Source: a virus
IMG/VR virus record: IMGVR_UViG_3300045988_110853
Span: 4,077 to 68,076 of that record
Direction: 5' to 3' (one strand)
DNA: 64,000 nt
Of this stretch, positions 1 to 56,734 are shown one piece after another. The stretch's first letter is position 1. The number at the start of each line of letters is the position of its first letter. The position numbers were made by a program, and so were the translations under genes. The notes beneath the pieces were generated by a model. The model saw only the letters and a list, made by a program, of their open reading frames with translations. It did no database searches and was not told the origin of the DNA.

Positions 1-526
1 CACCTTTTTTAGCAGTCCAATCTACTAATGTAAGAGTATTATTACTGATAGTATAGTTATCAGTCTCTTTCATCATTACACCGTTATAATAAGCAGTTAA
101 TGTACCAGAATCATTGTTGAAATCAAAAGGAATGGTGAATGTTGATTGTGTAGCATCAGATACGGTGAAAGTATATTTATTAGTAACTGAGTGATAATCG
201 ACACCGGCGGTCGCTGCGGTAATAGTATTACCATCGCTCTTTAAAATGCCAACTGGAAGAGAAACAAGAGTAGCTTCAACGGGAGTTTCCCACGTTTCAC
301 CATTTGTATTTTTTACGAGAGCATCGCCCGCGGTTCCACCATCGGGAAGACAAGAACTAAACTTTAAGTTGCCAACTTTAGTTGTTCCATCACCAATTTT
401 TATTTTATTTAAATCATCATAGATGATAATTTCGCCTTTTAAAGGAATAAAATTAGTCGCTTTCGCCCAATTCGCGGAACTATCGTGCTTTTGGACTATA
501 CGACTTTGATATGTTTTATTAGCCAT
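1..526 (-). CDS. tail fiber-like protein, N-terminal part (gene runs off window start)
   Basis: ATG at 524-526 preceded by RBS; N-terminus shares the IP.GE...KIGDGTT motif seen in 5 other genes here. Confidence 0.5.
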   Translation of the reverse strand, partial: MANKTYQSRIVQKHDSSANWAKATNFIPLKGEIIIYDDLNKIKIGDGTTKVGNLKFSSCLPDGGTAGDALVKNTNGETWETPVEATLVSLPVGILKSDGNTITAATAGVDYHSVTNKYTFTVSDATQSTFTIPFDFNNDSGTLTAYYNGVMMKETDNYTISNNTLTLVDWTAKKG

Positions 527-3892: not shown

Positions 3893-4099
3893 TAATTATC
3901 TCCTTTCTTTGAGAAAATAAAAAAATGGTGTTACCTCTTTTGTATAATTAGAAGTAACACCATTTAGAAAATAGTTTTCTCAATAATCATTTCCAAAAGA
4001 GTAAAACCAAAATATATATTTAAATTTTAAGTTATCAATTCCAAACTTAAATTTTCTATCTACATTATATATTAATTTTTGGAAATGTTAATATATTGA

Positions 4100-5939: not shown

Positions 5940-6452
5940 AATTAAACGGAGATTATAAATTATATGCGAAAACGACAGTTTCATCTAATTCGTTTACTCG
6001 CATTTCAATTTTTTCTTTTAATTCATCAGTAATAGCTTTTTGAGTCATAGTGCCATCTATATTCTATCCAGGATTATTATATAATTTCATAATCCCAGGA
6101 GTTATTTCATTAGCGTTCTATGTTTCATTTATCGGAATATACTATGTTCCATTATAATAATAAATAATTTGATTACTTATATAAAGTCTATTTTCATATC
6201 CATTAATTATAATAGTATGTTCTTCATCTTTATAAAAATTATTCTCATAAAAGTATCCTCGAATAAAAAGATTATCTTGATAATTTAAATTACCATAAGA
6301 AGTAATTCCATCACCAATTTTTATTCTTAGTCCATTCTTCGCGGTATCTACTAAAATAGGTTCTCCGCGAGCTGGAATAAAAGTGTCTTTTACTTTTTCA
6401 TAATTATAATCATTATCACGACGTAATTTAATAATAGAATTAATCTATTTTA
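5940..6452 (-). CDS. tail fiber N-terminal anchor domain paralog (TAG-rich)
   Basis: RBS aggagg then ATG; MPNIK-TAG-INSIIKL...IPARGEPILVDTAKNGLRIKIGDGITSYGNL. Confidence 0.4.
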
Positions 6453-6486
6453 TATTAGGCATTTATTAGCCTCCTTTCTACCTTTT

Positions 6487-6858
6487 TTAGGCAGTAGGAG
6501 CACTACCACCATCAATAATTAAACCATCAAGTATATCAGTTAAATCATTTTCGTTAGGAACTTGACTAAATTGATTGTTATTAATAACATTATAACTAAC
6601 CCAGTTACCATCTTTATTTTTAATTGAAATGGTTTCACCTTCGTAATTACCATATTTAGCAACCCAAAGACGTGCTTCGTTTTCATTTTCAAAACGAGTC
6701 TTTTTAACAATTTGTTTTAAATTACCTTTTTCATCATAATAATAGACTTCTCCACTGTTTTTCTCGTTATTCGTTACGATAAGAGTTTCATTGGAGATAA
6801 CTTCTTCAGTAATACTATTATTAATTTTATCTTTATTTACATATGCTAATTTAAACAT
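6487..6858 (-). CDS. hypothetical protein
   Basis: 123 aa ORF with RBS ggagg. Confidence 0.45.
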   Translation of the reverse strand: MFKLAYVNKDKINNSITEEVISNETLIVTNNEKNSGEVYYYDEKGNLKQIVKKTRFENENEARLWVAKYGNYEGETISIKNKDGNWVSYNVINNNQFSQVPNENDLTDILDGLIIDGGSAPTA

Positions 6859-8999: not shown

Positions 9000-11030
9000 T
9001 TAATAATTATTATATGCGGTTAGTAAAGTATCTAATTGTGTTTTAAAACTAGCATCACCTGACGCCACCTTAGTATTATTTCCCAAAGCAGTTGTTATAG
9101 CATTAAACCAAACTACTAAACGTAGGGGATTAGCGTCATTTATGGTAGCAATTGAACTATTTAAATAAGTATTTATATATCCCGCGAAAGTATTTGCTTC
9201 ACTTCTGGAATAGTCTTTCCAAGTAAATGCGGGCCACCAAACTGCGTAATAAGTTATATTAGATGTTCCAGTAGAAATTGAAGGTGTTGCTCCCTTTTTA
9301 TAAGTCGCGGTTTTTGCCGTAGACGATGTAGACCATCCTTTAAAAATATAATTATTGCGAGTAGGATAATTGGATCCGTTAATATTAAAAGAAGAATTAG
9401 TATTAACTGTCTGTGATCCCGGCCCGCCAGAACCGCCATTCGCATTATAAGTTATGGTTATTGTATTTCTTTTCCAAATCGCATAAAAAGTTGTTGAACC
9501 ACTTACTAATACAGAACTTCCTGCGCTATAGCCAGAAGTAGCAGATGAAGAAGTGCTCCATCCTTGGAAAGTATAGTTTGTACGAGATGGCGCGGAAGCC
9601 ATTGTAGCGTTCATAGAATCAGCGTAAACATAATTTGTAGACCAGATAGTATTAGTACCATCATTCTTGTTAAAGGTTATTGTATATTGTCTATAATAGT
9701 TATATTGCCACGGTATAGAATATGTGCTGCTATTACTCCAAGCGGCGTTTACATACCAATAATAAGTAGTGCTTGCTGATGCTGTATATTCAATTTTAGT
9801 ATCATAACCAGTTCCCGCTCCATCATCATCTACTTTTAATGTTGTTCCACTAACAGCACTTGTTCTACTAGTTCCCGAAGCAGCTGATAAAAGTGAAGAA
9901 CTTAAATAGCTATAATAGTCAGGACTTTTAGAATTACTGGTTGTTTTAAATACCAATTTTCCAGCATAACTTGGAGTTGTTACTGTAATATATCCTGCCT
10001 TATAAGCAGGTACAGAAGTAGTACCACTTGTTCCACTAGTACCACTACCTATAGTATACATACTAATTGGTGTCATCCAAGAACTTATTGATTCAAAATA
10101 AAAATAAAGTTTTCCTGAAAAAGCAGCAGGGCTACTCCAAGGAGCTATCGCTATTCTATAAGTTGTATTAGCAGTCACAGAAAACTAAGTTATTTTAAAA
10201 TGTCCGCTTCCGCCACTTTGATCGTCAGATATTAAATAATTTGTTATTGCCTAATATCCACTAGAAGCGCTTGAATTTAATCCCATTGAATTGGCATATC
10301 CTATAAATCCATAGTCATCAAAACTATCTCCAGAAGCATATGCAGTAAGAAGTCCATTTGAACTAGGAGTATAATCAATATACCCAATTCCGTAAGAAGA
10401 TAAATTATAGTCTACATAAGTATTGACTGCGCCACTATAATTACCTAAATTTTGTAAATACCATCCTGTTGGAGCTTCAGTATAAAAGAAAACTACATAA
10501 GGATGCCTTGAACTATGATTGGTACAAACAGAGTCTGTTCCATCATAATTTCCATTTTTTGCCTGTTCTACACATTTTGACCAAGTGCTATGATAAACAT
10601 AACCCTAATAAGTATATCCACTAATAGTAGGAGCTGTAATGCTTGAAGAAGAAGTGGAAGTTTCATAGCCCATATAATCTCCAGCGGTTAAATTGTAGCA
10701 ATCCCAATGATAATCATCATCAGAGCCACCGCTACCTCCTCCGCCTCCACCAGAATCTTCATCAGTCCAAGCAACTCCTGTTCCAGAGGCTCCATTATTC
10801 CACTAGCCTGCTGTATAATAATCTACTTCCCAAGCATATTCATACCTTGTGCCAGGAGTTAATCCTGAAATTCGAACCCAAGGAGTTCCAGTTGTTGAAG
10901 AACCAGTATCCGAAGTCCCATCATCTAAACGGACATATAACCTTCTACTAACATTATCTGAACTTATTCCACTTGCTTCAAAAATTAATGAGGTAGTAGT
11001 ACTACTTGTACAACTTACAGAAACAGCCAT
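9000..11030 (-). CDS. large structural protein with FN3-like motif (about 4 in-frame TAG)
   Basis: ATG 11028-11030 after RBS aagggagg; GLTPGTRYEY FN3 signature; joins track ORFs 10803-11030 and 9000-10178 through TAGs; TAA stop. Confidence 0.5.
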
Positions 11031-11980: not shown

Positions 11981-12207
11981 TTGAGGGTTTTAATTAGGTT
12001 AACCCACAACCTCCGATAGTGTGTCTACTGAACCAAAGGAATGCCCGATCGCCACATTCCACTCTTTAAAAGATGGACGCTTCTAATCCTACTTCCTATC
12101 GTATAAAAGGACTTATCAATGACTTTTATACATATTGCCTTTATTATCTTTATAAACAAATTAGCATTACCCAGTGCTACCGCGAGGAGGTTTTGTTTTT
12201 AGCACCG

Positions 12208-12296
12208 CAGCCCCGCTGGGATTCGAACCCAGAACGACTCCTTCAAAGGGAAAACGGTTTTAGAGACCGCCGTGTTAACCGTTACACTACGGGGCA
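12208..12296 (-). tRNA. suppressor tRNA, anticodon CTA (reads UAG); type-II-like long variable region, discriminator G
   Basis: Manual fold: D-arm GTGT AACGGTTA ACAC; anticodon stem GCGGT/ACCGT with loop CTCTAAA; T-arm CTGGG TTCGAAT CCCAG; 21-nt variable region. Confidence 0.7.
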
Positions 12297-13329: not shown

Positions 13330-13368
13330 TTCTATATATATTATATTATATTTTTTATAAAAAATCAA
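13330..13368 (-). promoter_or_regulatory. class-A phage promoter (TTGATT-N17-TATAAT)
   Basis: -35 at 13363-13368, -10 at 13340-13345, conserved downstream ATATATAGAAAG. Confidence 0.6.
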
Positions 13369-22269: not shown

Positions 22270-23148
22270 TTAATTTCGACCAACATCTAAAATATAACAA
22301 AAACCAGCTAATCTATATTCAGGTTTAAAGAAATATTGAGCTAAAGCTTTTGCGCAATGATCCGCAGAATTTCGTCCAGAAAGTTTAATGTTATTAAATC
22401 CAAGAGGAAGATACTTATCAATAATTTCATCCATATAAATCATATCTTTATTACCGATTTCTGGAAACATAGAATCATTATTTTTAATAGTAGTACAACT
22501 TCTTTCTTTATCATTAAAAGCCTGAAAAAGATTCATTTTAGAAAAAATATTATAATGAGTATATAAGCGCGGACAGTCAATAGGACATGTTTCGTCTACC
22601 AAAATTTCAATTCTATTCCTTTTATTTTCTGGTACAGAATTTAAAAAATCCCAGTCTCGATTTTTACGACGAGGAATAACTACACTTTCATAAATATCAA
22701 GTGCTTTTACAAAATCATAATCTTCCTTTGCAGCTGTAATACTCTTTGTAAGTTTATAATTAGGAAACTTATCTCGAAGATACTTTTCGAGAATAGGAGA
22801 ATTAACAATAATTTCATTCATTCCATTATCAAAAAGTTTAAGCATTTCATTACATTGTCTATCATATACGTCTGTTTCTTCAAGGTTAGGATTTGTAAGG
22901 GTAAAGCGCAAAATAATATTATTCTTTTCATAAAATTCTCGTACAGCACAGAGATAATCAATATTATGTTCTGGCATTCCGCCCATAAAACCTCCGCCAT
23001 TCCAAATCATGCCAGGAAGTGCACCATAAACATATTTTACTTTTGCTTCTGGATAAAAAGCTTGAGGTTCAAGCTCTTGAAGTTCAAGTAATCTATCATA
23101 AACATCAATACCATAATAAAATTCAGGGCAATTAAAATTAATATCCAT
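22270..23148 (-). CDS. hypothetical protein, last gene of YcaO/radical-SAM cluster
   Basis: 292 aa ORF, very AT-rich codon usage. Confidence 0.55.
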   Translation of the reverse strand: MDINFNCPEFYYGIDVYDRLLELQELEPQAFYPEAKVKYVYGALPGMIWNGGGFMGGMPEHNIDYLCAVREFYEKNNIILRFTLTNPNLEETDVYDRQCNEMLKLFDNGMNEIIVNSPILEKYLRDKFPNYKLTKSITAAKEDYDFVKALDIYESVVIPRRKNRDWDFLNSVPENKRNRIEILVDETCPIDCPRLYTHYNIFSKMNLFQAFNDKERSCTTIKNNDSMFPEIGNKDMIYMDEIIDKYLPLGFNNIKLSGRNSADHCAKALAQYFFKPEYRLAGFCYILDVGRN

Positions 23149-23161
23149 TTATATTCTCCTA

Positions 23162-24979
23162 TTAGTAATTTGCAATCATTGTTTTAAAATCTTTAGAATT
23201 AAAAATTTCTCTCATTGGTTCAAGAATACATTTTTCAACCAAATATTTTCTATTTAAAATATTATTAAAATCTTCATTAGTATATTCATAATTATATTCT
23301 TTTAAAATATCAATTATTTCATCTTTAGAATATTTCCTACTTTTTACATAAGAATATAAATTAAGATACTTTTTAAATTTTTTATAATAAGGACTTACTG
23401 TAATATCTACGGCAAATTGATTATCTTCAAGAAGATAATCAGCAGGATCTTCAAATAGATTTTTTACAAAAATTTCATTAGGAATAGTTTGCACATCTAC
23501 ATTATTATATGAAACAAGTAAATCTCCTTGTGATAAAAGCCCTAAAAATCTATCAGTTAAAGTGTCTCCTTCAATTAAATCTGTAAATGTTAAAGAATCT
23601 TTAATAATATCATATACTCCATCACCAGTATCTAAATATTTTTGAATATGTCCGCATTTATTTTTAGTAAGAATAGCACTTTTTTTTAAAGTCTTTAATG
23701 TTTTACATTTATTTAAAAAAGAATACCAAAATCCGTCAAGATTGTCAAGATAAATATCAATTGCTGTAATTTTATTACTTAAAGATACATCAGCATAATA
23801 AATTTTTGCTCCAATTGATTTTGTAATTTTTTTATTCCACTCAAGAATTTCTTCATTAGAATAACTTTTATTCTCGTAGGATAAGAATACATCTTTATTT
23901 ATAGTATTTACATACTTTTTATTAAGAAGAATATTCTCAGGAAATGTATTTAAATTAGTAATACAAGAACCACCCATGATAATAATATCATCATCATTTA
24001 ATGTATTATAAGGAAGAATAATAGAAAATTTTCTATCATCATAAGAGAAACAATTTTGATACATTTCAGTTAAAATACGTTCAACCGCAATTTCAAACAC
24101 AGGAAAAGCGCCAAAATTTGCAGAAATAGTTCCATTTTTATAATTGATAAGAACTCCCATTACTACTGGAATATTAAAAGTTCTTGACATATCAATAATA
24201 TAATATTTATTACCATGAGATTCAATAGCATTAATAATATCTATTAGTTTTTTATCAGTAATACTATTAATATCAAAAAAATAATAATTTTTATCAGTAT
24301 TAGTATAAAAATGACTAACTACGTAATGTTCAAAAATTTCTGATAATCCTTGATTTAAAGCTTCAGTTAAAGTATTACCAGCGGCCATACCAGAGCTACC
24401 TTGATAACGTTGAACAAGACGTGGGTCTAAATATTTAATATCTTTATCATCGTTTAGATTGATATAAGGAGTGCCAAAAAATTTATTATTATACATAGAA
24501 ACAAGACAATCTTTAATTAAATAGTTAGTTTCTTCATCAAAAGAATTAAAAAATTTATACATTAAAGATTCTTTTTCTCCAAGAGCTTCTTCAAAGCTTA
24601 CTTCTTTTTCATTTTTAAATAATGAATATCCATAATTTTTTTGATTTGCTTTAATTTTTTCATTACATAAAAATGGATTACATAAATAATGTAATCCATT
24701 ACAAAATCTTTCATACATTTCAGCGTATCCAGAAGCCATAGCGAATTCTTTAGATACTCCTTTACCGAAAGATCTTAAAATAGAATGACCTTTATAATAT
24801 AAACGAAGAGCAAGACTCCAAGTCGTAGATTGTTCTTGACGCAAAACTTCTTCGATGCAATAAAAGTCTCGATCCGCGAAGAATTGCTTAATGTTATTTA
24901 CTGTGTCTAGAGGACTAATTTCTTTATAATGTTGTGAATAATTATTCATATGATATTTTGCCTTTCTTTTTCCTATCAT
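23162..24979 (-). CDS. YcaO-domain protein with about 300 aa C-terminal extension of unknown type
   Basis: SFGKGVSKEFAMASGYAEMYERF and QGSSGMAAGNTLTEALNQGLSEIFEHY match YcaO ATP-binding motifs; 605 aa, no in-frame stops. Confidence 0.7.
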   Translation of the reverse strand: MIGKRKAKYHMNNYSQHYKEISPLDTVNNIKQFFADRDFYCIEEVLRQEQSTTWSLALRLYYKGHSILRSFGKGVSKEFAMASGYAEMYERFCNGLHYLCNPFLCNEKIKANQKNYGYSLFKNEKEVSFEEALGEKESLMYKFFNSFDEETNYLIKDCLVSMYNNKFFGTPYINLNDDKDIKYLDPRLVQRYQGSSGMAAGNTLTEALNQGLSEIFEHYVVSHFYTNTDKNYYFFDINSITDKKLIDIINAIESHGNKYYIIDMSRTFNIPVVMGVLINYKNGTISANFGAFPVFEIAVERILTEMYQNCFSYDDRKFSIILPYNTLNDDDIIIMGGSCITNLNTFPENILLNKKYVNTINKDVFLSYENKSYSNEEILEWNKKITKSIGAKIYYADVSLSNKITAIDIYLDNLDGFWYSFLNKCKTLKTLKKSAILTKNKCGHIQKYLDTGDGVYDIIKDSLTFTDLIEGDTLTDRFLGLLSQGDLLVSYNNVDVQTIPNEIFVKNLFEDPADYLLEDNQFAVDITVSPYYKKFKKYLNLYSYVKSRKYSKDEIIDILKEYNYEYTNEDFNNILNRKYLVEKCILEPMREIFNSKDFKTMIANY

Positions 24980-25014
24980 ATAAATATATTACTATATTTT
25001 TTTAATAAAGTCAA
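24975..25014 (-). promoter_or_regulatory. class-A promoter variant (TTGACT-N17-TAATAT)
   Basis: -35 25009-25014, -10 24986-24991. Confidence 0.45.
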
Positions 25015-25083
25015 AAACCTACCAAATAAAGTGGTAGGTTTTTGACTTTATCAAATTAAATAAAAACAATTAGGGCATAAATA

Positions 25084-25305
25084 CTAATTATCATTTATTT
25101 TAAATAATGGGATATTATTTATTTGTAAATTACATTTAGAGCATCGTTTATTTTTATAAATTTTTGGTATAAAAATTTCTATATCTGGTTCAAATAAGTT
25201 TAAAAGATTATTAGATATTCTTTGAAAATAAATATCTTTTTCTTCATTACTATCATTATAATTATATTGTAAAATATATTCACACATTATTTTACAATGA
25301 TTCAA
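25084..25305 (-). CDS. small Cys-containing hypothetical protein
   Basis: 73 aa ORF; TAG-interrupted coding continues upstream to about 25700. Confidence 0.3.
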   Translation of the reverse strand: MNHCKIMCEYILQYNYNDSNEEKDIYFQRISNNLLNLFEPDIEIFIPKIYKNKRCSKCNLQINNIPLFKINDN

Positions 25306-25712
25306 ATTAGTTAATTTTAATTCCTCTATTGGGACAACAATACTAGATATATTATCTAAATTTATTTTAGATTTAATTATATACTATATTTGAAGAATTA
25401 TAGTTTTATCTTTTTTAATAATTCCTAAATTAAAACAAACGAAAAGTATCCAATAGTCATAAATACTATTATTATCAAAATCAAAAGATAAAGCTCTTAT
25501 TTTATCCCAAAAAATTTGTTCTGAAGTCTCAAATCCACCATTACTAAATTTCATTTAATTCTCCATTAAAACAATAATTATAATAATTATTTGTATCTTT
25601 TTCAAGTTGAATACTTCGAGGATAATCTAATTCCCAAGATGTTCTTTTATTATAAAACTATAAAAAATTTTTTAATATATCTTGTATAAATTCTTTATAT
25701 TCATCATAAGTA

Positions 25713-27767
25713 TCAATCATATAAATCATACTCTTCTTTCTCAAGATAATTTAGAAATTGATCGTAAACAAATTGATAATATATATATCCATTAAAATAA
25801 TTTAATATTGGATATACTTCTTTTTTTAAATTATCAAATGATTTAATATATTCTCCATCTAAGCAATGAAAATTAATAGTATTATTTTTTATATCACTTA
25901 TAATTTTTTTACTCAATGGGCATAAACAATCATTATTTATTTGATTTAAAGGATAAATTAAATTTATTTTATATAAAATATAATAGCTTGTTTTAATGAA
26001 ATTTTCTATAAAATAATTATTATGTTTTATATAAATTAAATTATCATATTCATAGAAATATTTTATTTCATATAAAATTCTAATAATTATTGATTGTAAT
26101 ATTTTATTTTTTTTATCTGAATTTAAATTATAAATATAAAAAAACTATAAAAAGAAAATAACTATTTTTACTAAATAATCTATAGCTTCAGATAATCCTG
26201 TATGAGATATATTGCCTGGATTAATATTTAAATCAATTATATAATTTCCAATAGTCTAATCAATTAATTGCCCTTCTCCATATAAATTACATAAATCAAA
26301 GAATAAATTATCTTCACACAAACAAAAATTACTATATTTTATATTATATTTCTATAAAAAATCTCGCTTTAAAATTAACCCAAGCTTATTATCAGGAATA
26401 ATAAACTATATAAAATCATTTTTTTTATTATTTTTTATAGAATTATAAAGAATTTCTAATTCATTATCTGTATTAAATAAATCATCTGAATCCCAAAATA
26501 AAATATATTTATTAAATGAATTTTCTAAGCCTATATTTCGGGCGGATCCCGGACCTTTACGAGCAATATTTTTAAAAAAGAAACAAGAAAAATCCGCGTT
26601 ATCAAATATTTTAATAACTTTTCTTTCGCAAGCTGAATTATCACTTATTAAATATACACAGCAATCTTTAATAATTGTTTGCGCTCTTAATGAATTATAT
26701 AAATCAATTATCTAATTATCATTAAGATTATAATAAGGAATAATTATATCTATTTTACCATTAATAAATCTATTTATACATTTTTGTAAATAATAATTAT
26801 TATACCGGAAATCAATTGGGGTCTTACCATTTAAGAATTCCTAATAATTGTTTAGAAAATCTTCTTTATTATTTATAAGTTTTAAATAAAAGTTATAGTC
26901 TTCAAAATAAGCATTTTCCATTGATATAGTAAATTCTGATTTAGTATTATAACATTTATGCCATAGCCAAGAAGTGACCGGTAAAGTGGCATCACAATAT
27001 TTACAAATTTTTTTAGGTGAAAATATAAAATTATGTAAGTCATCTAAACTATTTATATTTTCTAATTGTAAATAATCTTTATCCTCTTCTGGAATATTTA
27101 AATTATATTTTTTACAATAAATATCTAAAAATGCGGAAAAGGGACAAATATATATTTTATAATCTTTTAATGTAAAACAAGGTATTTCATGCGGACAATA
27201 TTGATAATAAGCTTTTATTGGATCAGTATCTCCATTTTCATTTACAAGCTATTGACGCATAAATAATCGTTCTTGATGATTAAAAGCAATACCATATTCT
27301 TGACATTCTTCAACATCTTTATAATCTGTATAATTACTATAAGCAGTTATGTCAAATATTATATCCATATCAAGATATTCTTTTTTATGTTTAATAGTGT
27401 CTTTCATATTTAATCCGTTAGATAAAACTTTTAATTGAGTTTTTTCTTTTGGAAATATTTCACGAGCTATTTTACATAATTCAAATAATTGTGGGTGAAG
27501 AGTTGGTTCTCCACCCACAATCATAAATACTTTTATATTAGGAATTTTTTTATTAGCTATAATAATCTAATTGCGGAAATCATTTACATCAATAAACCAA
27601 GGGGTGGCTAAAGGTGAAAAATGATTGCAACCTGCACAATTAAGATTACAATGATCTACTACCTGTATCTCTAGACTTACACCATCATAAACAGATTTCC
27701 AAAGACTATGTGTATATGGAGGAGTCCCACGGTAATCTTTATCTTTCTTTATCTGTATATCGTTCAT
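25713..27767 (-). CDS. TAG-rich coding region: small radical-SAM (CxxxCxxC + GGEPTLHP), Cys-rich SPASM-like segment, then GT2 glycosyltransferase (IIIPYYN, DSDD); apparently one ORF with about 8 TAG
   Basis: VVDHCNLNCAGCNH and MIVGGEPTLHP at N-term; QYCPHEIPC...CKYCDATLP Cys cluster; GKIDIIIPYYN and FWDSDD GT2 motifs; only TAG interrupts the frame by eye. Confidence 0.4.
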
Positions 27768-28320
27768 CGAAATCTCCTAATATATGAGTGTTATAATCAA
27801 CTAATTCTCTTATTTGATTATTACGTTCATGTAAAAAACATTGAGTACAAATTTCATTTAAATCATTTAAAGGTTCATGGAAAAAATTGCAATAATGTTT
27901 TTCAAAATCAAAATATTTACAATGCTTATCACATATTAAAATATCATTATCTTTATCATAAATTACAGAATGGTCTTCTCGTAAACGAAAAGATAATTGA
28001 ATTTTAAACATTAAAGTTCCTTGATAAGAATATAAAAAAGTTTTATAAAATATGTCTTGAACTTTACTTTCAAAAGTAAATTTCTATTTATCTGTAGTAA
28101 TAAGCTCAATGCATTCTATTTCATTCTAATCTATAGTTTTAACTTGCTAATAAACCTAATTTAAAAAAGAATAATCAATATCATTCTAATCTTTAATTAT
28201 TTTCGCAAAAACTATTTCTTTTGGAAAATTTAATTGAAATATAATATCATCACATTGACGCTCATTAAATTTAACAGATTTTAAAATTTCTTTATTTGAA
28301 TTAATAAAATTAATAACCAT
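27739..28320 (-). CDS. Cys/His-rich hypothetical protein (about 5 in-frame TAG)
   Basis: MVINFINSNKE...; C-terminal CDKHCKYFDFEKHYCNFFHEP..CTQCFLHE. Confidence 0.35.
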
Positions 28321-28636
28321 TTCTCTTATCAGGAATTCCTTTTAATCGATCTCCTAAGAAATATCTATATAATTCATAAGAATCAATACCATTATCACAA
28401 TAACAATTATTATTATTTTCATTATTGTTGTTATCGTTATTATTAGATTTTTCTGTATGATCTGTAATAATTATTTTAATAAAATTATTAATAATAGTAT
28501 TAATTTCTTCATTCTCACCATTATTTTCAATCCAATTTAAATAAATAATATATAAAAGATCTCTATAATCTTCTACATTACTATAATCAAAAGTTTCAAT
28601 TAAATGGTTAATTTGATTTTTCATTTCTTCAATCAT
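28310..28636 (-). CDS. hypothetical protein with poly-Asn tract
   Basis: 108 aa ORF. Confidence 0.4.
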   Translation of the reverse strand: MIEEMKNQINHLIETFDYSNVEDYRDLLYIIYLNWIENNGENEEINTIINNFIKIIITDHTEKSNNNDNNNNENNNNCYCDNGIDSYELYRYFLGDRLKGIPDKRNGY

Positions 28637-30035
28637 TATAATACCCCAAATTATGGCAAAGATTTAACCAATTTTCTTTATATCTTTCATCTGGAAAATA
28701 ATTTTTTTCTAAAGCAATTTTAGTTAATCCTAGTTCGCAATAACTTTTAACTAAAAAAGATATTCTTGTTTTATGTAATTCACAGACACTTTTAGGTGGC
28801 AAAAACAAATCTCCAGTAGACTCAAGCGCAGCGCCAAGACAAAGCTTTAAACAAAATGCTTCATAAGGACAAGTAACACATCCAACATTTAAATGAGTAT
28901 TATTTGTTTTAATTACCGTATAAAGGCTTGGATTAATGGCTGTAACTCCAATAATTTTATCATTTTCAACTTCAAATCTACCACCAATAAATTGTTGATA
29001 AGAAGTTCTATGACAAGGAACTAATTCCATAGTAGCAACATAAAAACAGGTTTGGTGAGAAATTGCGCAAGTGTAATTTCCATCTCTCCAAGTGACGGTT
29101 GGCTGTAATGGGTCATAATTATGTAATCCAATCAAAGACCCTTCTTCTCCGTCCCCTAAAAAGATATGTCGAGCTAGTTTATCTAATGAGCTATCATTCA
29201 TTTGGAATCTAATTTCAAGCATGTGAGTTAAAAATTCAAGATATTGATTTAATTTTTCTTCCGTCCATTCATCATTACGCACTTCTAAAAACATGGGCTG
29301 GAATTCATCACGAGGGCCTTTACATAATTTATATTTTTCATATTGTTCAAGCCACCAATCATAATTTTTAATAGCACTTTCAATATTACTTGGAGAAATC
29401 ATTGGATGAATACCACAAGAATTCCTAGAAAGGAATTGCATAATCTTATCATAATATTCAAAATCTTTATTTTCTTCTCTTACACTATTATAAGGGCCAT
29501 CTACAGAACAAGATAAATTTAATTCCATTTCAAGATCAAGAAATTTTTGAAGATACTCTTCCATTTTAGTTGCTTTTTTATCATCAGCGACAAAACTAAA
29601 ATTATTAGGGAAAGCAATACGAGGATGATGTTTCTTAAAAAGATTAGGATGCTCTTCAAAAAGAGCTCCATAGTATTTTAAAAGTAGATCAAAAACACTA
29701 AAACCTAAATCATCGTAAAATAAATCTCCCGCGAAAAGCTCTATTTCAAGAAACAAAACTTTTCTTTCGTTAAAAATATAATCTAACATAATATTCATAT
29801 TTTTAAGAATTTTTTCATTATTTGCTCTTGTTTCAAGTGGATATAAATCTTTTCCATAACGAGCAATATAACAATATTCACACTTTTGATTACATTCTGG
29901 ACGAATAATAAACTCAAAAGAGCTTTCATTTATCCAATAACCTTCTTCTTTATCCCCTTGATTAAAACAATGATTATCAAGAAATTTTTCAAAATATTTA
30001 TTATTATCTAAAATACAACCTTCACTAATATTCAT
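28629..30035 (-). CDS. radical SAM enzyme with C-terminal SPASM domain (peptide-modifying maturase type)
   Basis: CNQKCEYCY (CxxxCxxC) near N-term; C-terminal CVTCPYEAFCLKLC; ATG overlaps upstream gene stop. Confidence 0.75.
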   Translation of the reverse strand: MNISEGCILDNNKYFEKFLDNHCFNQGDKEEGYWINESSFEFIIRPECNQKCEYCYIARYGKDLYPLETRANNEKILKNMNIMLDYIFNERKVLFLEIELFAGDLFYDDLGFSVFDLLLKYYGALFEEHPNLFKKHHPRIAFPNNFSFVADDKKATKMEEYLQKFLDLEMELNLSCSVDGPYNSVREENKDFEYYDKIMQFLSRNSCGIHPMISPSNIESAIKNYDWWLEQYEKYKLCKGPRDEFQPMFLEVRNDEWTEEKLNQYLEFLTHMLEIRFQMNDSSLDKLARHIFLGDGEEGSLIGLHNYDPLQPTVTWRDGNYTCAISHQTCFYVATMELVPCHRTSYQQFIGGRFEVENDKIIGVTAINPSLYTVIKTNNTHLNVGCVTCPYEAFCLKLCLGAALESTGDLFLPPKSVCELHKTRISFLVKSYCELGLTKIALEKNYFPDERYKENWLNLCHNLGYYND

Positions 30036-52610: not shown

Positions 52611-52949
52611 TTAAGAAATTGTAGAGATTAAAAAAATCTCGGGATCATCAAGGCTTTCGATAGGGATTTTAAGAAACTTTGCGTAAGCTTCCTTCATTGT
52701 GTCATTAAGGCGATAATATTCCTGCGGTGCGATAAAGATGTTGTCAATGCGAACGGCTTCTCCCGCAGAAGACTCACCGAGAAGATAACCGAAGATAGGA
52801 TTTTCGTCGTTATCATAATCGCTTGCGCGATGCCAATAACCTTCCTCAGTAAGCTGTTCGATAGCCTCAGTCATATTTGAATAATTTTTGAGAATGTTCT
52901 TGGGAACCTTATAACCGCACACGAGCTTAGAACCAAAATCAACAGACAT
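52611..52949 (-). CDS. hypothetical protein
   Basis: 112 aa ORF after class-A promoter. Confidence 0.45.
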   Translation of the reverse strand: MSVDFGSKLVCGYKVPKNILKNYSNMTEAIEQLTEEGYWHRASDYDNDENPIFGYLLGESSAGEAVRIDNIFIAPQEYYRLNDTMKEAYAKFLKIPIESLDDPEIFLISTIS

Positions 52950-52984
52950 TATTTATCACCTTTCAATAGTTTTTCTTTATTTTA

Positions 52985-53029
52985 TATATATATTATATAT
53001 TAAAATTTAATAAAAATCAATAACGCGGT
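52985..53029 (-). promoter_or_regulatory. class-A promoter
   Basis: TTGATT 53024-53029. Confidence 0.5.
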
Positions 53030-53039
53030 TTTGTCGCCT

Positions 53040-53520
53040 TAAAGTAGTATAAAGACTGGGTTTAATGATCGGTTTACCAAAAATGGTCATTTTAAATGAA
53101 AATGGTCAAAATTTTCTATATGTTGGTCTAAAATTTCTATATTTTTGTCCGTTTTTTTCTATATTTCTGGTCAAAAAATACTGATGAAGAGATCGGATAG
53201 CGAGTATAGAGGCGGATTGAGGCAAGGGAAACCGCGTAGGCAAAAATTTTAGGTAATTTTTCATAGTTGTTTATAAAAATATTAAATAAAATAGGTAATT
53301 TTTCATAGTTCCCTATTTTTATATAGCTGTCTAAATTTTAAACAAAATAGGTAAAAATTTTAGGTAATTTTTCATAGTTCCCTATTTTTATTTAAAAATT
53401 GTAGGTAATTTTTAATAGTTAGCGATCGGTTTTACGAGAATTTTTAAGAAATTTTTCATAGTTGCCTTTAAAAATATACTTTGGGTAAAAATTGTTAAAA
53501 TTACTATTTTAGATTTGAAG
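53040..53520. repeat. origin-like region with at least two iteron families
   Basis: AGGTAATTTTTCATAGTT about 5 copies; TTCTATAT and TGGTC(A/T) direct repeats; divergent-transcription boundary. Confidence 0.5.
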
Positions 53521-53732
53521 TATATATGAAGGAGGTGGAAGTGTTGTCGGTAGAATAGAAGAGATTTCCCGCTAATGTAGATATGAATATATTAACTTTT
53601 TTAAATAATAAGAAGATAAATGGCGAGTTATACGCTTATTTATAGAGCTTATCTGAGTATGATGTTATTAATAAATAGTATAATATTTATAAGACTTATG
53701 TATTAAAAAAATGGTTGCCAATTCAAAGTAAG

Positions 53733-54176
53733 ATGTGCCAAATGCTTGGTATTAAAAGTCCTAAAACATTAAAAACGCATTTGAATTATTTAATTGAATA
53801 GGGCTATATTATTGAAGAAGAAGATAGATATATATTACCTGAGATGGAAAATATATATTTTCTTATTCCTTTACATACATTAAGATATATAAATGATAAC
53901 TGTAAAGAACATATTATAAAAATATATATTTATTTGGGATAGCGTTATAAATATGCGTTAAATAATGGAAGTTAGTATGAATTTACATTAGAGGAAATTG
54001 GAGAACATAGTGGTATAAAAGTTAAGAATAACAGCAGAGGTTATGAAATTATTAATAATGCTTTAACATTTTTATAGAATTCAGAATTGATTGATTATGT
54101 TAGTTTTTTTGATGGATAGATGTAGAAAAAGAAATTAACAAAGTTTAGTTTTGAATATAAAAATTAGAATAGGTAA
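53733..54176 (+). CDS. winged-helix replication-initiator/regulator-like protein (at least 8 in-frame TAG); start uncertain
   Basis: Only frame free of TAA/TGA; LKTHLNYLIE-TAG-GYIIEEEDRYILPEM...EEIGEHSGIKVKNNSRGYEIINNALTFL. Confidence 0.4.
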
Positions 54177-54240
54177 TTTTTAATAGTTGCCGATGAGTAT
54201 TTTAGGTAATTTTTCATAGATGCTTCGACTTAAATTAGGT
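54170..54240. repeat. second cluster of AGGTAATTTTT(C/A)ATAG iterons
   Basis: two copies flanking rep-like gene end. Confidence 0.45.
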
Positions 54241-54287
54241 AAAAAATCATAGATTATCTAAGTAATAAGTAGAGAGTGTTTTCTAAG

Positions 54288-54345
54288 TAGTTTGTATGAT
54301 ACAAACGATCGGCATTCGCCTCACTTTGTATCATACAAACGTTTG
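54288..54345. promoter_or_regulatory. two 17-bp palindromic operator-like sites upstream of 54378 gene
   Basis: GTTTGTATGATACAAAC and CTTTGTATCATACAAAC 20 nt apart. Confidence 0.45.
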
Positions 54346-54377
54346 ATTTTTAGATGAAAAGAAAGGTGATAAATAGA

Positions 54378-54662
54378 ATGGTTAATGAAGAAAGAAGAAT
54401 AAATTCTTTGGATTATGCTATGTATGAATTTTTAGATCAAATGGGTAGAACAGATTTAGCAAAAGATTTATTAGAAGGAGTTATTTAGTATCATTATGAA
54501 AATCATTATTATGGAGATAATGAGTTTGTAGAAAAATATTTAAAATGGTTTAGTTAGGGATATTTAGATAGAATAATTAAAGAAAATTATATGGAATTAA
54601 TGATAGATGAAAGTTAGAAAGATGTTTATGAAAAATATAAAGAAGAATTAGAATTAGAATAA
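54378..54662 (+). CDS. hypothetical protein (3 in-frame TAG)
   Basis: RBS aaagaaaggtg; MVNEERRINSLDYAMYEFLD-TAG-MGRTD... Confidence 0.45.
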
Positions 54663-54918
54663 AGATGATATCGGTATTATAGCTGGTAAATTATCTTTAA
54701 ATGGATTAAGAGTATATTTATTTTTAATTAATAATAATTTAAATTAGTTTGAGATAGAAGATTATGCTAATTGGTTAAATAAAGATTATGATTCTAATAG
54801 TAATAAAAGTAGAGCTATTAGAAAATCATTGAATGATGGAATATAGAATTTATTAGATAATAATTATTTAATTGAAAGAGATAAAGATAATTATATCTTA
54901 GTGTAAAAGGAGTAAAAT

Positions 54919-55182
54919 ATGAGTTATAGTTATACAGATGTAAGAGGAGGAAAAGGAAACCCTTCTATTGTTAAATTTGCCAGAGGAACGCAAGAATAGT
55001 TTGATAAGTTAGATAAGACAGGTATGATAAAACCTGATTTATATATGAAAGGTGATACTCTTTATTTAGTTATTCCTACACCAAATACTAAACCAATTAA
55101 AGTAGTATTCGACAATAATGATAATGATAAGCCTGAATCAATAGAAGAGAATCCATTCTTACAAAACTCTATTTGCTATTAA
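54919..55182 (+). CDS. hypothetical protein (1 in-frame TAG)
   Basis: RBS taaaaggagtaaaat; 87 aa. Confidence 0.45.
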
Positions 55183-55321
55183 TTAAAAATTATATTATAA
55201 TATAAATAGTAAAGAAAGAAATAAAAATTTAAAGTGAAATATACCGGGGTATATTATTCTTATGAAAAATAGGGGTATTTACTCCGGGGAACATTTCAAA
55301 AAATGAAATAAAAGTAAGGAT

Positions 55322-55714
55322 TTGAAAACTGAAATGAAATTTACGATTGAAGAATTAAAGAAGAATAATGGAGAAAAGGTAGGCGTTTTCCGTAATTGGA
55401 ATGTTATTGCAACTACCAAGAAAGAGTTCTTTAATAGAGAGAATACGCAAGGCGCGTATCTTATTTGGGACGACTGTAATAAGCTTGTATTTAACGGGAA
55501 GGTTGTTGGTAGAATTAGTGAGAATGGTAGAGTAGAGTATATCGAGAGTGAGTACCGCTATGTGAAGCCGGTCTTACAGGAGCAGGCCGCAGACAACTAC
55601 ACTGAGAAAACTGTTGCTCTTGGATCGGAAGATGTGGATCTTACTAAGCGCACACTTGCTGATGATATTCTTGATAGTGCATTTAAAATGAAATTGGAGG
55701 AGCTTTTAGCGTAA
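55322..55714 (+). CDS. hypothetical protein
   Basis: 130 aa ORF. Confidence 0.5.
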   Translation: MKTEMKFTIEELKKNNGEKVGVFRNWNVIATTKKEFFNRENTQGAYLIWDDCNKLVFNGKVVGRISENGRVEYIESEYRYVKPVLQEQAADNYTEKTVALGSEDVDLTKRTLADDILDSAFKMKLEELLA

Positions 55715-55787
55715 TGGGTATTATTTGTTTTTTACTTGGTGTTGCTGTTGGATATTGTATATGGAATGCTGGAAGAGACCGTTAATA
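55713..55787 (+). CDS. possible 24-aa hydrophobic peptide (ATGA overlap with upstream gene)
   Basis: MGIICFLLGVAVGYCIWNAGRDR. Confidence 0.2.
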
Positions 55788-55929
55788 GATCTATACTGGT
55801 TGATTCGCTTCTGGATTATTATTAAATTAATGGGTTCGGAAGGTTCGGATACTACGTATCCTCACTGTAAGGGAAAAAGAATTAAATTATAAAGAAATGG
55901 GTTGAAAACGTAGTAATATTAATAGTTGT

Positions 55930-56040
55930 TAATATTATAGAAATTACTAATATTGTTAAAGATTGTTAATATTGTTGAAAATTGCTGAAATTATTAGAAA
56001 TTGTGAAAACGTTGAAAATTGCGAATATGCCCTGCCGATC
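55930..56040. repeat. short degenerate direct repeats (GAAAATTG / TTGTTAA units)
   Basis: attgttaaagattgttaatattgttgaaaattgctgaaattattagaaattgtgaaaacgttgaaaattgcg. Confidence 0.4.
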
Positions 56041-56087
56041 GGTTTTACTAAACCACCAACCACATTTCCTCGTCTCTGTTTCCGACA

Positions 56088-56138
56088 ACCCATAAAAAAA
56101 AGAGAGACTTTTTTTAGTCTCTCTTTTTTCGTATTAGG
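56088..56138. terminator. bidirectional rho-independent terminator
   Basis: A-run, 10-bp stem AAGAGAGACT/AGTCTCTCTT with T7 loop, T-run. Confidence 0.65.
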
Positions 56139-56196: not shown

Positions 56197-56574
56197 TCAC
56201 TTATTGATGAAAGTATTCAAAAATTCGGCAATTACATCATCATCAGTTCTCTTGACCTTCTTAACCTTTACCTTCTCACTCTTGGGAAAAAGCGCGTCAA
56301 GAAGATCGTTAACCCCGGTCATAAGACCGTAGACCTCAGCAAAGATATTTTCCACATCAGATGCGGTCAACGCAGAATCCTTGTAGCCATTAAGAGCGGC
56401 ATACTCGTTAATCCGATCGGCGATTTCCTGCGCGAGCGCAGCCTTCCGACCGGCCTGCTTAGACTCCTTCTCCACCTGCTTAACCGCATCGTTCAGAGAC
56501 TTAGCCATTTCGTCCGCAATAGCCTGAGCGTCCTCACCATTTTTCAGACGAGCAATAATATCATTCATATCCAT
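56197..56574 (-). CDS. hypothetical protein
   Basis: 125 aa ORF after tandem class-A promoters. Confidence 0.5.
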   Translation of the reverse strand: MDMNDIIARLKNGEDAQAIADEMAKSLNDAVKQVEKESKQAGRKAALAQEIADRINEYAALNGYKDSALTASDVENIFAEVYGLMTGVNDLLDALFPKSEKVKVKKVKRTDDDVIAEFLNTFINK

Positions 56575-56594
56575 ATGAATACCTCTTTTCTTAT

Positions 56595-56634
56595 TTTCTA
56601 TATATATTATATACTATTTTTTTAAAAATGTCAA
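56595..56634 (-). promoter_or_regulatory. class-A promoter
   Basis: TTGACA 56629-56634. Confidence 0.55.
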
Positions 56635-56734
56635 GATTTTTTTGGACGAAAACATACGCGTGAAACAATGTAAGGGCGAAGCAATTTTTAATTAATCATA
56701 AAGGCATATGATCCTACGCGGGCTTAAAAAAGTC

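Follow-up and report, generated by a model that had tools for sequence, protein, structure and literature searches.

The basic replicons of P1 (oriR/incC - repA - incA) and F (ori2/incB - repE - incC) are iteron replicons with initiators of the Rep_3 class. In phages of the lambda O type, the initiator gene itself contains the origin and has helicase or loader genes beside it; in most RepA_N plasmids, the iterons are also situated inside the gene. Origins often lie in a low-GC segment between divergent promoters. For the large gut phages that recode a stop codon, we know of essentially no described origin or initiator and of no cultured representative. RepA_N initiators include the RepA of the PLE of Vibrio cholerae (PDB 4RO3; PMC7145576) and the staphylococcal pSK41/pTZ2162 RepA (4PTA, 5KBJ), and RepA_N iterons have been described as semi-palindromic around an A-tract (PMC7145576). 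The present analysis concerns a stretch of 64,000 nucleotides (below, the window) of the IMG/VR virus record IMGVR_UViG_3300045988_110853 (positions 4,077 to 68,076), which is part of a large phage genome where TAG is decoded as glutamine (genetic code 15), and, within it, the segment at 53.0–54.35 kb, where an open reading frame (ORF), ORF1, is flanked on both sides by copies of a 19-bp direct repeat. The locus is an iteron-like cassette of a protein and its sites, built on an uncharacterised two-winged-helix family, and its unusual feature is near-total amber recoding in an early region of standard code. It is tentatively read here as an iteron-type replication origin with its initiator, a reading given a little less than an even chance.

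An earlier note on this DNA, made from the sequence alone, had reported at least five iteron copies at 53040–53520 and more at 54170–54240, and a motif search bears this out. The 19-bp TAGGTAATTTTTCATAGTT has seven matches in 64 kb (up to three mismatches were allowed, and the copies found have 0–2), all on the plus strand, starting at 53250, 53292, 53361, 53402, 53445, 54170 and 54203; 0.12 matches are expected by chance, and seven were reached in none of 100 shuffles. The 64-kb window has no copy outside 53250–53463 and 54170–54221, which rules out a dispersed promoter motif. Degenerate copies at 53237, 53348 and 54236 add to the two arrays (Table 1), which lie ~0.9 kb apart. The full upstream copies are spaced by 42, 69, 41 and 43 bp, the last of them overlapping the best weak promoter-like site of ORF1 (TTTTCA-16-TATACT, 53453–53480), and the TAA stop codon of ORF1 falls inside the first downstream copy (54170). 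The TGGTC repeats also listed earlier form a tandem array of their own, TGGTC/TTCTATAT at 53103–53176 (Tandem Repeats Finder period 21 bp, 3.4 copies), with an extra TGGTCA at 53085; this array is kept in the related loci L001, L002 and L004, and not in L003.

ORF1 starts at GTG 53541 or TTG 53544, preceded by the Shine-Dalgarno sequence AAGGAGGTGG. It had been described as a frame of 150 codons readable only with TAG as sense and containing at least eight TAGs; the need for TAG and the count stand, with ten found, but the length does not, the product having 211 amino acids (aa). Ten of its glutamine codons are in-frame TAG (the first being codon 6), two are CAA and none is CAG. A non-coding ORF would have undone the earlier description, and the comparisons speak against it: 409 close homologues exist, and TAG is aligned with CAA/CAG at invariant glutamines, Gln 34 and Gln 133 being encoded by CAA/CAG in 7/8 and 8/8 of the TAG-avoiding orthologues. 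On the strength of these alignments, ORF1 is clearly a real coding gene with TAG read as glutamine. No in-frame TAA or TGA was found in 22 ORF1 orthologues.

ORF1–ORF4 are the most TAG-dense part of the window, with TAG making up 18 of 23 glutamine codons (78%); by comparison, TAG accounts for 19% in the recoded left portion of the window and for none in the genes that flank the block (0%; Fisher p = 1.4e-8). Many genes at 0–36 kb are open only with TAG as sense, and the real genes at 36.6–53 kb and 56–64 kb contain no TAG, so that the ORF1 block is embedded in a region otherwise in the standard code. Summed over the ORF1 orthologues, there are 105 TAG vs 88 CAA/CAG codons; every glutamine is TAG in four orthologous loci (8–9 of 8–9), and three loci have no TAG.

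AlphaFold 2 modelling of ORF1 (predicted local distance difference test score 81.7) indicates two winged-helix domains, at about residues 33–105 and 116–207, in agreement with the winged-helix-like character ascribed to the sequence before. The top fold match is the RepA replication initiator of the Vibrio phage satellite PLE (origin-binding RepA_N domain), and the predicted fold is also of the kind found in the winged-helix N-terminal domain of DnaD-like proteins. The profile matches of ORF1 itself, LexA_DNA_bind and HTH_36, are generic or sub-threshold. A Pfam scan of 99 family members matched 40 families at E ≤ 0.01, of which 25 were listed, with HTH_36 in 35 members, DUF6945 in 17, Rep3_N in 8, DnaD_N in 2 and Phage_rep_org_N in 1. 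The Rep3_N matches are all below the cut-off (best 1.3e-4) and none belongs to ORF1; RepA_N (PF06970) is not among the 25 families listed of the 40, and ORF1 has no match to it. In PHROGs, the 'ScpB'-labelled PHROG 3396 is matched by 55/99 members, and ~40 matches to replication-initiation, lambda O-like or DnaD-like families were found vs 3–4 to transcription regulators. The BFVD fold search gave weak matches to GpO-N, replisome organizer and replication initiator entries. The profile check proposed earlier, for Rep, DnaD and RepL, gave no more than sub-threshold matches to Rep_3, DnaD, lambda O-like and replisome-organizer families, and generic transcription-factor winged-helix matches are equally present. 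The family, which forms 555 clusters at 50% identity, mostly of ~210 aa, is uncharacterised and has been seen almost only in uncultured gut phages. Its distant, longer members are on short contigs with unannotated neighbours, and their context is uninformative; one short metagenomic contig (L011, 935–2770) carries tandem paralogues of 197 and 305 aa.

ORF1 and repeats on both sides of it are kept in ~23 related IMG/VR loci at 43–92% identity. The flanks were compared by the most repeated 12-mer in L001–L006 and 23 IMG/VR loci; in every locus but L025, copies of it occur on both sides of the orthologue, upstream at −80 to −420 and directly downstream. Nearly all orthologous loci have three downstream copies, usually 22–23 bp apart (two helical turns) and, in the subgroup of the window, 33 bp apart. 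The repeat sequence shifts with the protein (TAGGTAATTTTTCATAG in the window, TAGGTAAAAAATCTAC in L003 and CTTGGTTCGATA in L032), and therefore the two appear to be a cognate protein–site pair. The commonest variant in the family, TAGGT-A5/6-TCTA, is semi-palindromic around an A-tract; inverted sub-repeats are not clear in the window variant. In tblastn searches over the related loci, only ORF1 is conserved, and ORF2–ORF5 and the left neighbour are not, which indicates that the conserved unit is the protein with its own flanking sites rather than a regulator with fixed targets. The same block of small ORFs is found in L004–L006. A recent mobile insertion was considered and ruled out, since synteny of the block extends to relatives with as little as 52% protein identity.

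Table 1. Features at and around the ORF1 locus (positions in the window)
Feature	Position	Strand	Description
Second direct-repeat array	53085..53176	+	4–5 copies of TGGTCAAAATTTTCTATAT, period 21–22 bp
P_left	52992..53020	-	TTGATT-17-TATAAT, sigma-A/sigma-70-type, leftward (53020->52992)
Upstream iteron array	53237..53463	+	5 full TAGGTAATTTTTCATAGTT copies and 2 partial (53237, 53348)
ORF1	53541..54176	+	211 aa, two predicted winged-helix domains; putative iteron-binding protein
Downstream iteron array	54170..54254	+	3 copies (54170, 54203, 54236), 33-bp spacing
ORF1 3' hairpin	54290..54353	+	16-bp stem, 19-nt loop, then T-rich run GTTTGATTTTT
ORF2	54378..54662	+	94 aa, 3 TAG
ORF3	54607..54906	+	up to 99 aa (start uncertain), 4 TAG, 0 CAA/CAG, winged-helix-like
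ORF4	54919..55182	+	87 aa, 1 TAG
P_ORF5	55173..55201	+	TTGCTA-17-TATAAT, rightward, drives standard-code ORF5
ORF5	55334..55714	+	126 aa, standard code, 39% GC
Hydrophobic peptide ORF	55714..55785	+	23 aa, MGIICFLLGVAVGYCIWNAGRDR, overlaps ORF5 stop (TAATG)
Phased repeat field	55919..56021	+	~10 repeats of 9–10 bp, ATTGTTAAA / GAAAATTGT
GATCGGTTTTAC motif	56037..56048	+	further copies at 53067–53078 and 53424–53435, non-coding
Bidirectional terminator-like hairpin	56093..56130	both	A-run, AGAGAGACT/AGTCTCTCT stem, T-run; seen by eye, no call by the scan tool

Among the described systems, the P1 and F replicons show a similar layout: at least five ~19-bp repeats upstream that take in the rep promoter, a small two-winged-helix protein, a second set of repeats in the same orientation downstream, repeat spacing in helical phase, and co-variation of protein and repeats. 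Features of the Rep_3 type are thus recognisable both in the model, with two predicted tandem winged-helix domains in a protein of the ~200–330 aa class, and in the DNA, where at least three direct repeats of 17–22 bp lie in helical phase beside the gene and appear to be protein-specific, judging from the co-variation in L003 and L032. Unlike Rep_3 proteins, ORF1 has no significant Pfam match to Rep3_N (WH1) or Rep3_C (WH2), and its module contains no DnaA boxes; unlike P1 and F, the module belongs to a lytic-looking phage of 180–200 kb, its translation depends on an amber suppressor, and the upstream spacing in the window is ~42 bp and not ~22 bp. The family-common TAGGT-A5/6-TCTA resembles RepA_N iterons in being semi-palindromic around an A-tract, but RepA_N is missing from the 25 Pfam families listed for the members, the second domain of ORF1 is a winged helix where RepA_N proteins have a genus-specific C-terminal domain, and the iterons flank ORF1 instead of lying inside the gene as in most RepA_N plasmids. 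With lambda O, SPP1 G38P and DnaD-like loaders, the locus seems to share the combination of a phage-encoded winged-helix protein and direct repeats, as the weak PHROG and BFVD matches of the family also hint; unlike in phages of the lambda O type, the repeats flank ORF1 and its neighbours are tiny variable ORFs.

The origin reading is preferred because of this layout, the top fold match to a RepA_N domain, the helical phase of the repeats, the way in which protein and repeats vary together, and the self-contained conservation of the unit; the module also lies between divergent promoters in a segment of 24–26% GC, and the sub-threshold replication-type matches of the family and its semi-palindromic repeat variant point the same way. 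The earlier description of an origin-like field therefore keeps its core, in that the anatomy is non-random and an origin is the best single explanation, if one held with not quite even confidence, but its palindromes and its skew argument need another interpretation. The cumulative GC skew has a minimum at ~52–53 kb, rises to ~57 kb and then falls, which coincides exactly with the plus-strand block, and in 20 related loci the skew follows gene orientation; since the coding strand accounts for it both in the window and in these loci, GC/AT skew was dropped as evidence either way. The top strand gains G and T across the locus with gene orientation unchanged, a shift weakly compatible with an origin and confounded by gene content.

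Several results weigh against an origin. The fold of ORF1 is generic, NCBIfam and PDB profile matches of the family are to generic transcription factors, no member passes the curated threshold for any Rep family, and a genuine Rep_3 protein aligned with the family profile by hhalign reached a probability of 21%. The stretch from 52.2 to 56.3 kb is devoid of DnaA boxes, genes for a helicase, a primase or a loader are lacking nearby, the main AT-rich tract (52965–53022) is accounted for by a conserved promoter, and classical iterons stand closer together than the upstream copies in the window (41–43 and 69 bp). Searches of 72,556 plasmids and 50,697 phage records yielded a single family member, borne by pRGI00117 (L036, HG796263.1), a 7.2-kb plasmid from rat gut. 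This member (hhalign probability 99.9%) has three 18-bp repeats downstream with 23-bp spacing, and the plasmid holds two modules, at 1186–2096 and 5963–6692, namely a Rep_3 gene with three 22-bp iterons and the ORF1-family gene. A complete Rep_3 replicon is thus present on pRGI00117, and the ORF1-family protein is not needed as an initiator there; the plasmid could be a two-replicon cointegrate or could combine a Rep gene with an accessory DNA-binding module.

If the segment at 53.0–54.35 kb is an origin, it would be a self-contained cis/trans module in which ORF1 binds its own flanking 19-bp repeats, 5–7 upstream and 3 downstream; we infer this binding, as well as the origin activity and its timing. 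Host RNA polymerase would fire the two outward-facing early promoters and the amber-suppressor tRNA-CTA would be made, and the ORF1 mRNA, with its first TAG at codon 6 and ten in all, would be translatable only once this tRNA is present. ORF1 would then coat the upstream array, autoregulating its own weak promoter, and would help to open nearby AT-rich DNA for the loading of the phage or host replisome; the downstream triplet might titrate or 'handcuff' the initiator, and the hairpin with its T-run would terminate the ORF1 transcript. As a conserved pairing of a protein with its repeats, the ORF1 module offers a compact and concrete candidate origin and initiator for recoded gut phages.

The same anatomy could belong to an autoregulated transcription factor or temporal switch whose operator arrays are the repeats and which has no part in replication, an explanation considered possible but rather unlikely. 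Such a regulator would accumulate in mid-infection, after the suppressor, and control its own promoter and the ORF2–ORF4 unit, perhaps also reshaping the divergent early-promoter region by looping between the arrays ~0.9 kb apart. The winged-helix profile and PDB matches, which are mostly to repressors (LexA, MarR, Crp, DeoR, Lrs14), speak for it, as do the overlap of the last upstream repeat with the only promoter-like site for ORF1, the position of the downstream array between ORF1 and ORF2, the nature of the locus as a promoter hub, the coexistence of a family member with a complete Rep_3 replicon on pRGI00117, and the very high use of TAG, which fits the timing device proposed for other preferentially recoded genes. 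However, the putative targets, ORF2–ORF4 and the neighbours, are not conserved while the protein–repeat unit is; the 8–10 sites in one orientation around the gene far exceed what simple autoregulation needs; the arrays overlap neither of the two strong early promoters, being at least 220 bp from P_left and ~950 bp from P_ORF5; and the best fold match is an origin-binding domain. Should ORF1 be a regulator, its module would still be a candidate early-to-late switch for the clade.

A centromere-like or architectural site, coated by ORF1 in the manner of the centromere-binding proteins TubR, AspA and ParR, or served by it in the manner of ScpB and JetB, SMC partners with two winged helices, in order to organise, segregate or mark the phage genome, is considered improbable. 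PHROG 3396 ('ScpB'), matched by more than half of the members scanned, would fit such a site, but the label probably reflects only the two-winged-helix layout; TubR and AspA are among the weak PDB profile matches, a third array of ~10-bp phased repeats lies at 55919–56021, and the plasmid-borne family member could serve a stability function, but no ParA, ParM, TubZ, SMC or kleisin gene was found in the block or among its neighbours (ORFs of 23–126 aa), and a lytic recoded phage of 180–200 kb has no obvious need of partition. Contigs end 0.2–4 kb from ORF1 in seven relatives (L006, L017, L029, L023, L013, L028 and L032), where ~1–2 such ends are expected, and this would agree with a packaging or terminus site in which the repeats are pac/cosB-like and ORF1 is a winged-helix small-terminase-like protein. 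That explanation is very improbable: the ends lie on both sides, at varying distances, in repeat fields or low-GC DNA, as assembly breaks would, a large terminase gene is missing next to the locus, the L001 contig end is not duplicated at its other end (no direct terminal repeat), and ORF1 has no terminase-family match. The contig ends are probably due to assembly breakage at repeats or in DNA of 24% GC; a coverage anomaly at an origin is also possible.

According to the part of Borges et al. (bioRxiv 10.1101/2021.08.26.457843) drawn on here, preferential recoding affects a small set of families, comprising lysis and tail genes, a homing endonuclease and a family of unknown function; the endonuclease belongs to an intron inside an early gene, and translation of such genes is argued to be impossible before the code switch. 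Like those families, ORF1 uses the reassigned stop far above the genome average, and, like the endonuclease, it sits inside an early standard-code region, implying delayed translation; what that part of the paper does not mention is a DNA-binding or origin-like module accompanied by cognate repeats. With the present locus, the few genes reported to prefer the reassigned codon are joined by such a DNA-binding or origin-like module, and the notion of a recoding timer, so far applied to lysis and structural genes, is extended to DNA transactions. Host-type promoters at 13368 and 13933 stand upstream of the suppressor tRNA (anticodon CTA, 12207–12296; Rfam tRNA score 56.2 bits), and hence the delay in ORF1 translation may be short, early-to-middle and not late. 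Since most or all of the glutamine codons of the initiator are TAG (10/12 in ORF1), one can also conceive, as an unlikely extension of the origin reading, that the origin is gated by the genetic code, so that it could neither fire nor change over to a second mode of replication before the phage amber-suppressor tRNA acts. Genome amplification would then be coupled to the code switch, and the two-winged-helix family of ~555 clusters would receive its founding functional assignment.

The two 17-bp perfect palindromes described earlier at 54288–54345 are only partly so: the one at 54290–54306 is perfect (8+1+8), and the one at 54324–54340 has one mismatch; together they are the arms of one hairpin (−25.6 kcal/mol, z = −4.5) with CGATCG in its loop (54306). 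A hairpin stands at this position in L001, L002 and L003 too, but its sequence differs, which argues for one terminator-like hairpin in place of an operator pair; it is the probable intrinsic terminator of the ORF1 transcript.

Transcription diverges at this locus, as had been proposed, with P_left running leftward and P_ORF5 rightward. P_left stands at the beginning of the 590-bp region upstream of ORF1, feeds a leftward standard-code operon starting at 52949, and has its −35 and −10 elements kept in L001–L004. P_ORF5 is an inverted copy of it (inverted repeat 52950–53020 vs 55173–55243). The TAG-rich ORF1–ORF4 (19–30% GC) thus lie between a pair of host-type promoters that face outward, and themselves lack a consensus promoter. 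Over the related loci, tblastn found no homologue of ORF2, a homologue of ORF3 in the L002 phage alone (L002 and L014 are one contig), one of ORF4 only in the L001 phage, and homologues of ORF5 only in the closer relatives, namely L001, the L002 group L004–L006 and, weakly, L015. The 23-aa peptide ORF is kept in L001 with 86% identity. The terminator-like hairpin at 56093–56130 closes both the plus-strand block and the converging minus-strand operon.

The claim that this is the only plus-strand coding block holds for proteins: the stretch 53541–55785 is the only one in the window, and the other plus-strand ORFs overlap minus-strand genes with family matches. Two plus-strand promoter–hairpin cassettes exist at 59705–59780 and 62244–62320, antisense to minus-strand genes; each consists of a consensus promoter (TTGACAAAA...GGTATAATGG), a GC-rich hairpin (GGACCGC...GCGGTCC) and then CCAATTTTATC, and they are candidate small antisense RNAs, with no Rfam match to either cassette.

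The phased repeat field sits between the plus-strand block and the bidirectional terminator-like hairpin, and similar repeats (GAAAATTGTAG / ATTGTTAAA; ~6–10 repeats of 9–11 bp) are present in L001 at 12060–12241 and in L002 at 12176–12235; the 181-kb L001 contig terminates inside this field. The field may serve as curved DNA, as a binding array or for unwinding. A scan for GATCGGTTTTAC gave four matches vs 0.67 expected, the fourth, with one mismatch, being on the minus strand at 56407–56418, inside the minus-strand ORF 56197–56655. Non-coding parts of the locus repeatedly contain GATCGGTTTWAC or the palindromic CGATCG (53067, 53424, 54306 and 56037), and a GATCGG motif is found at corresponding positions in L002; this recurrence may mark a methylation or host-factor site.

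Close relatives of the phage are IMG/VR contigs of 181, 201 and 127 kb, the first two being the records IMGVR_UViG_3300045988_119030 and _151351. Megablast of 24 kb of the window and tblastn of two ORF1-family members found no match among annotated phage records, and the sole match in the genome collection (GTDB genomes) is one small contig binned as Eubacteriales. The minus strand of the window has ~27 near-consensus TTGACA/TTGATT-17-TATAAT promoters, P_left being of their cassette type, and strong Shine-Dalgarno sequences, which together point to a host with sigma-A-type promoters. These promoters span 13340–63084 (e.g., 13368, 13933, 20288, 22263, 40945, 41621, 46432, 50450, 53020 and 56634), many of them in a repeated ~75-nt cassette with the conserved leader AGAAAGTTAAGAAAGGA and a Shine-Dalgarno sequence; none is found in the tail-fibre region at 0–13 kb. 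From this set, early genes and the tRNA array would seem to depend heavily on the RNA polymerase of the host.

About 17–20 tRNA genes lie at 10.8–22.2 kb. An ARAGORN call of 'tRNA-SeC (tca)' at 10855–10934 (anticodon TCA) is probably a false positive, being inside a 676-codon ORF and lacking Rfam support; no in-frame TGA was seen in the real genes examined. Rfam found only tRNAs across the whole window and matched no RNA family at the ORF1 locus. A minus-strand island of very low GC (19–29%) at 22270–31537, in which some genes have TAG codons, encodes a YcaO cyclodehydratase (23162–24979; Pfam 1.2e-27) and large proteins with CxxxCxxC motifs resembling those of radical S-adenosylmethionine proteins (25713–27767 and 30035–31537); judged by these genes, it may be a modification cluster for ribosomally synthesised and post-translationally modified peptides carried by the phage.

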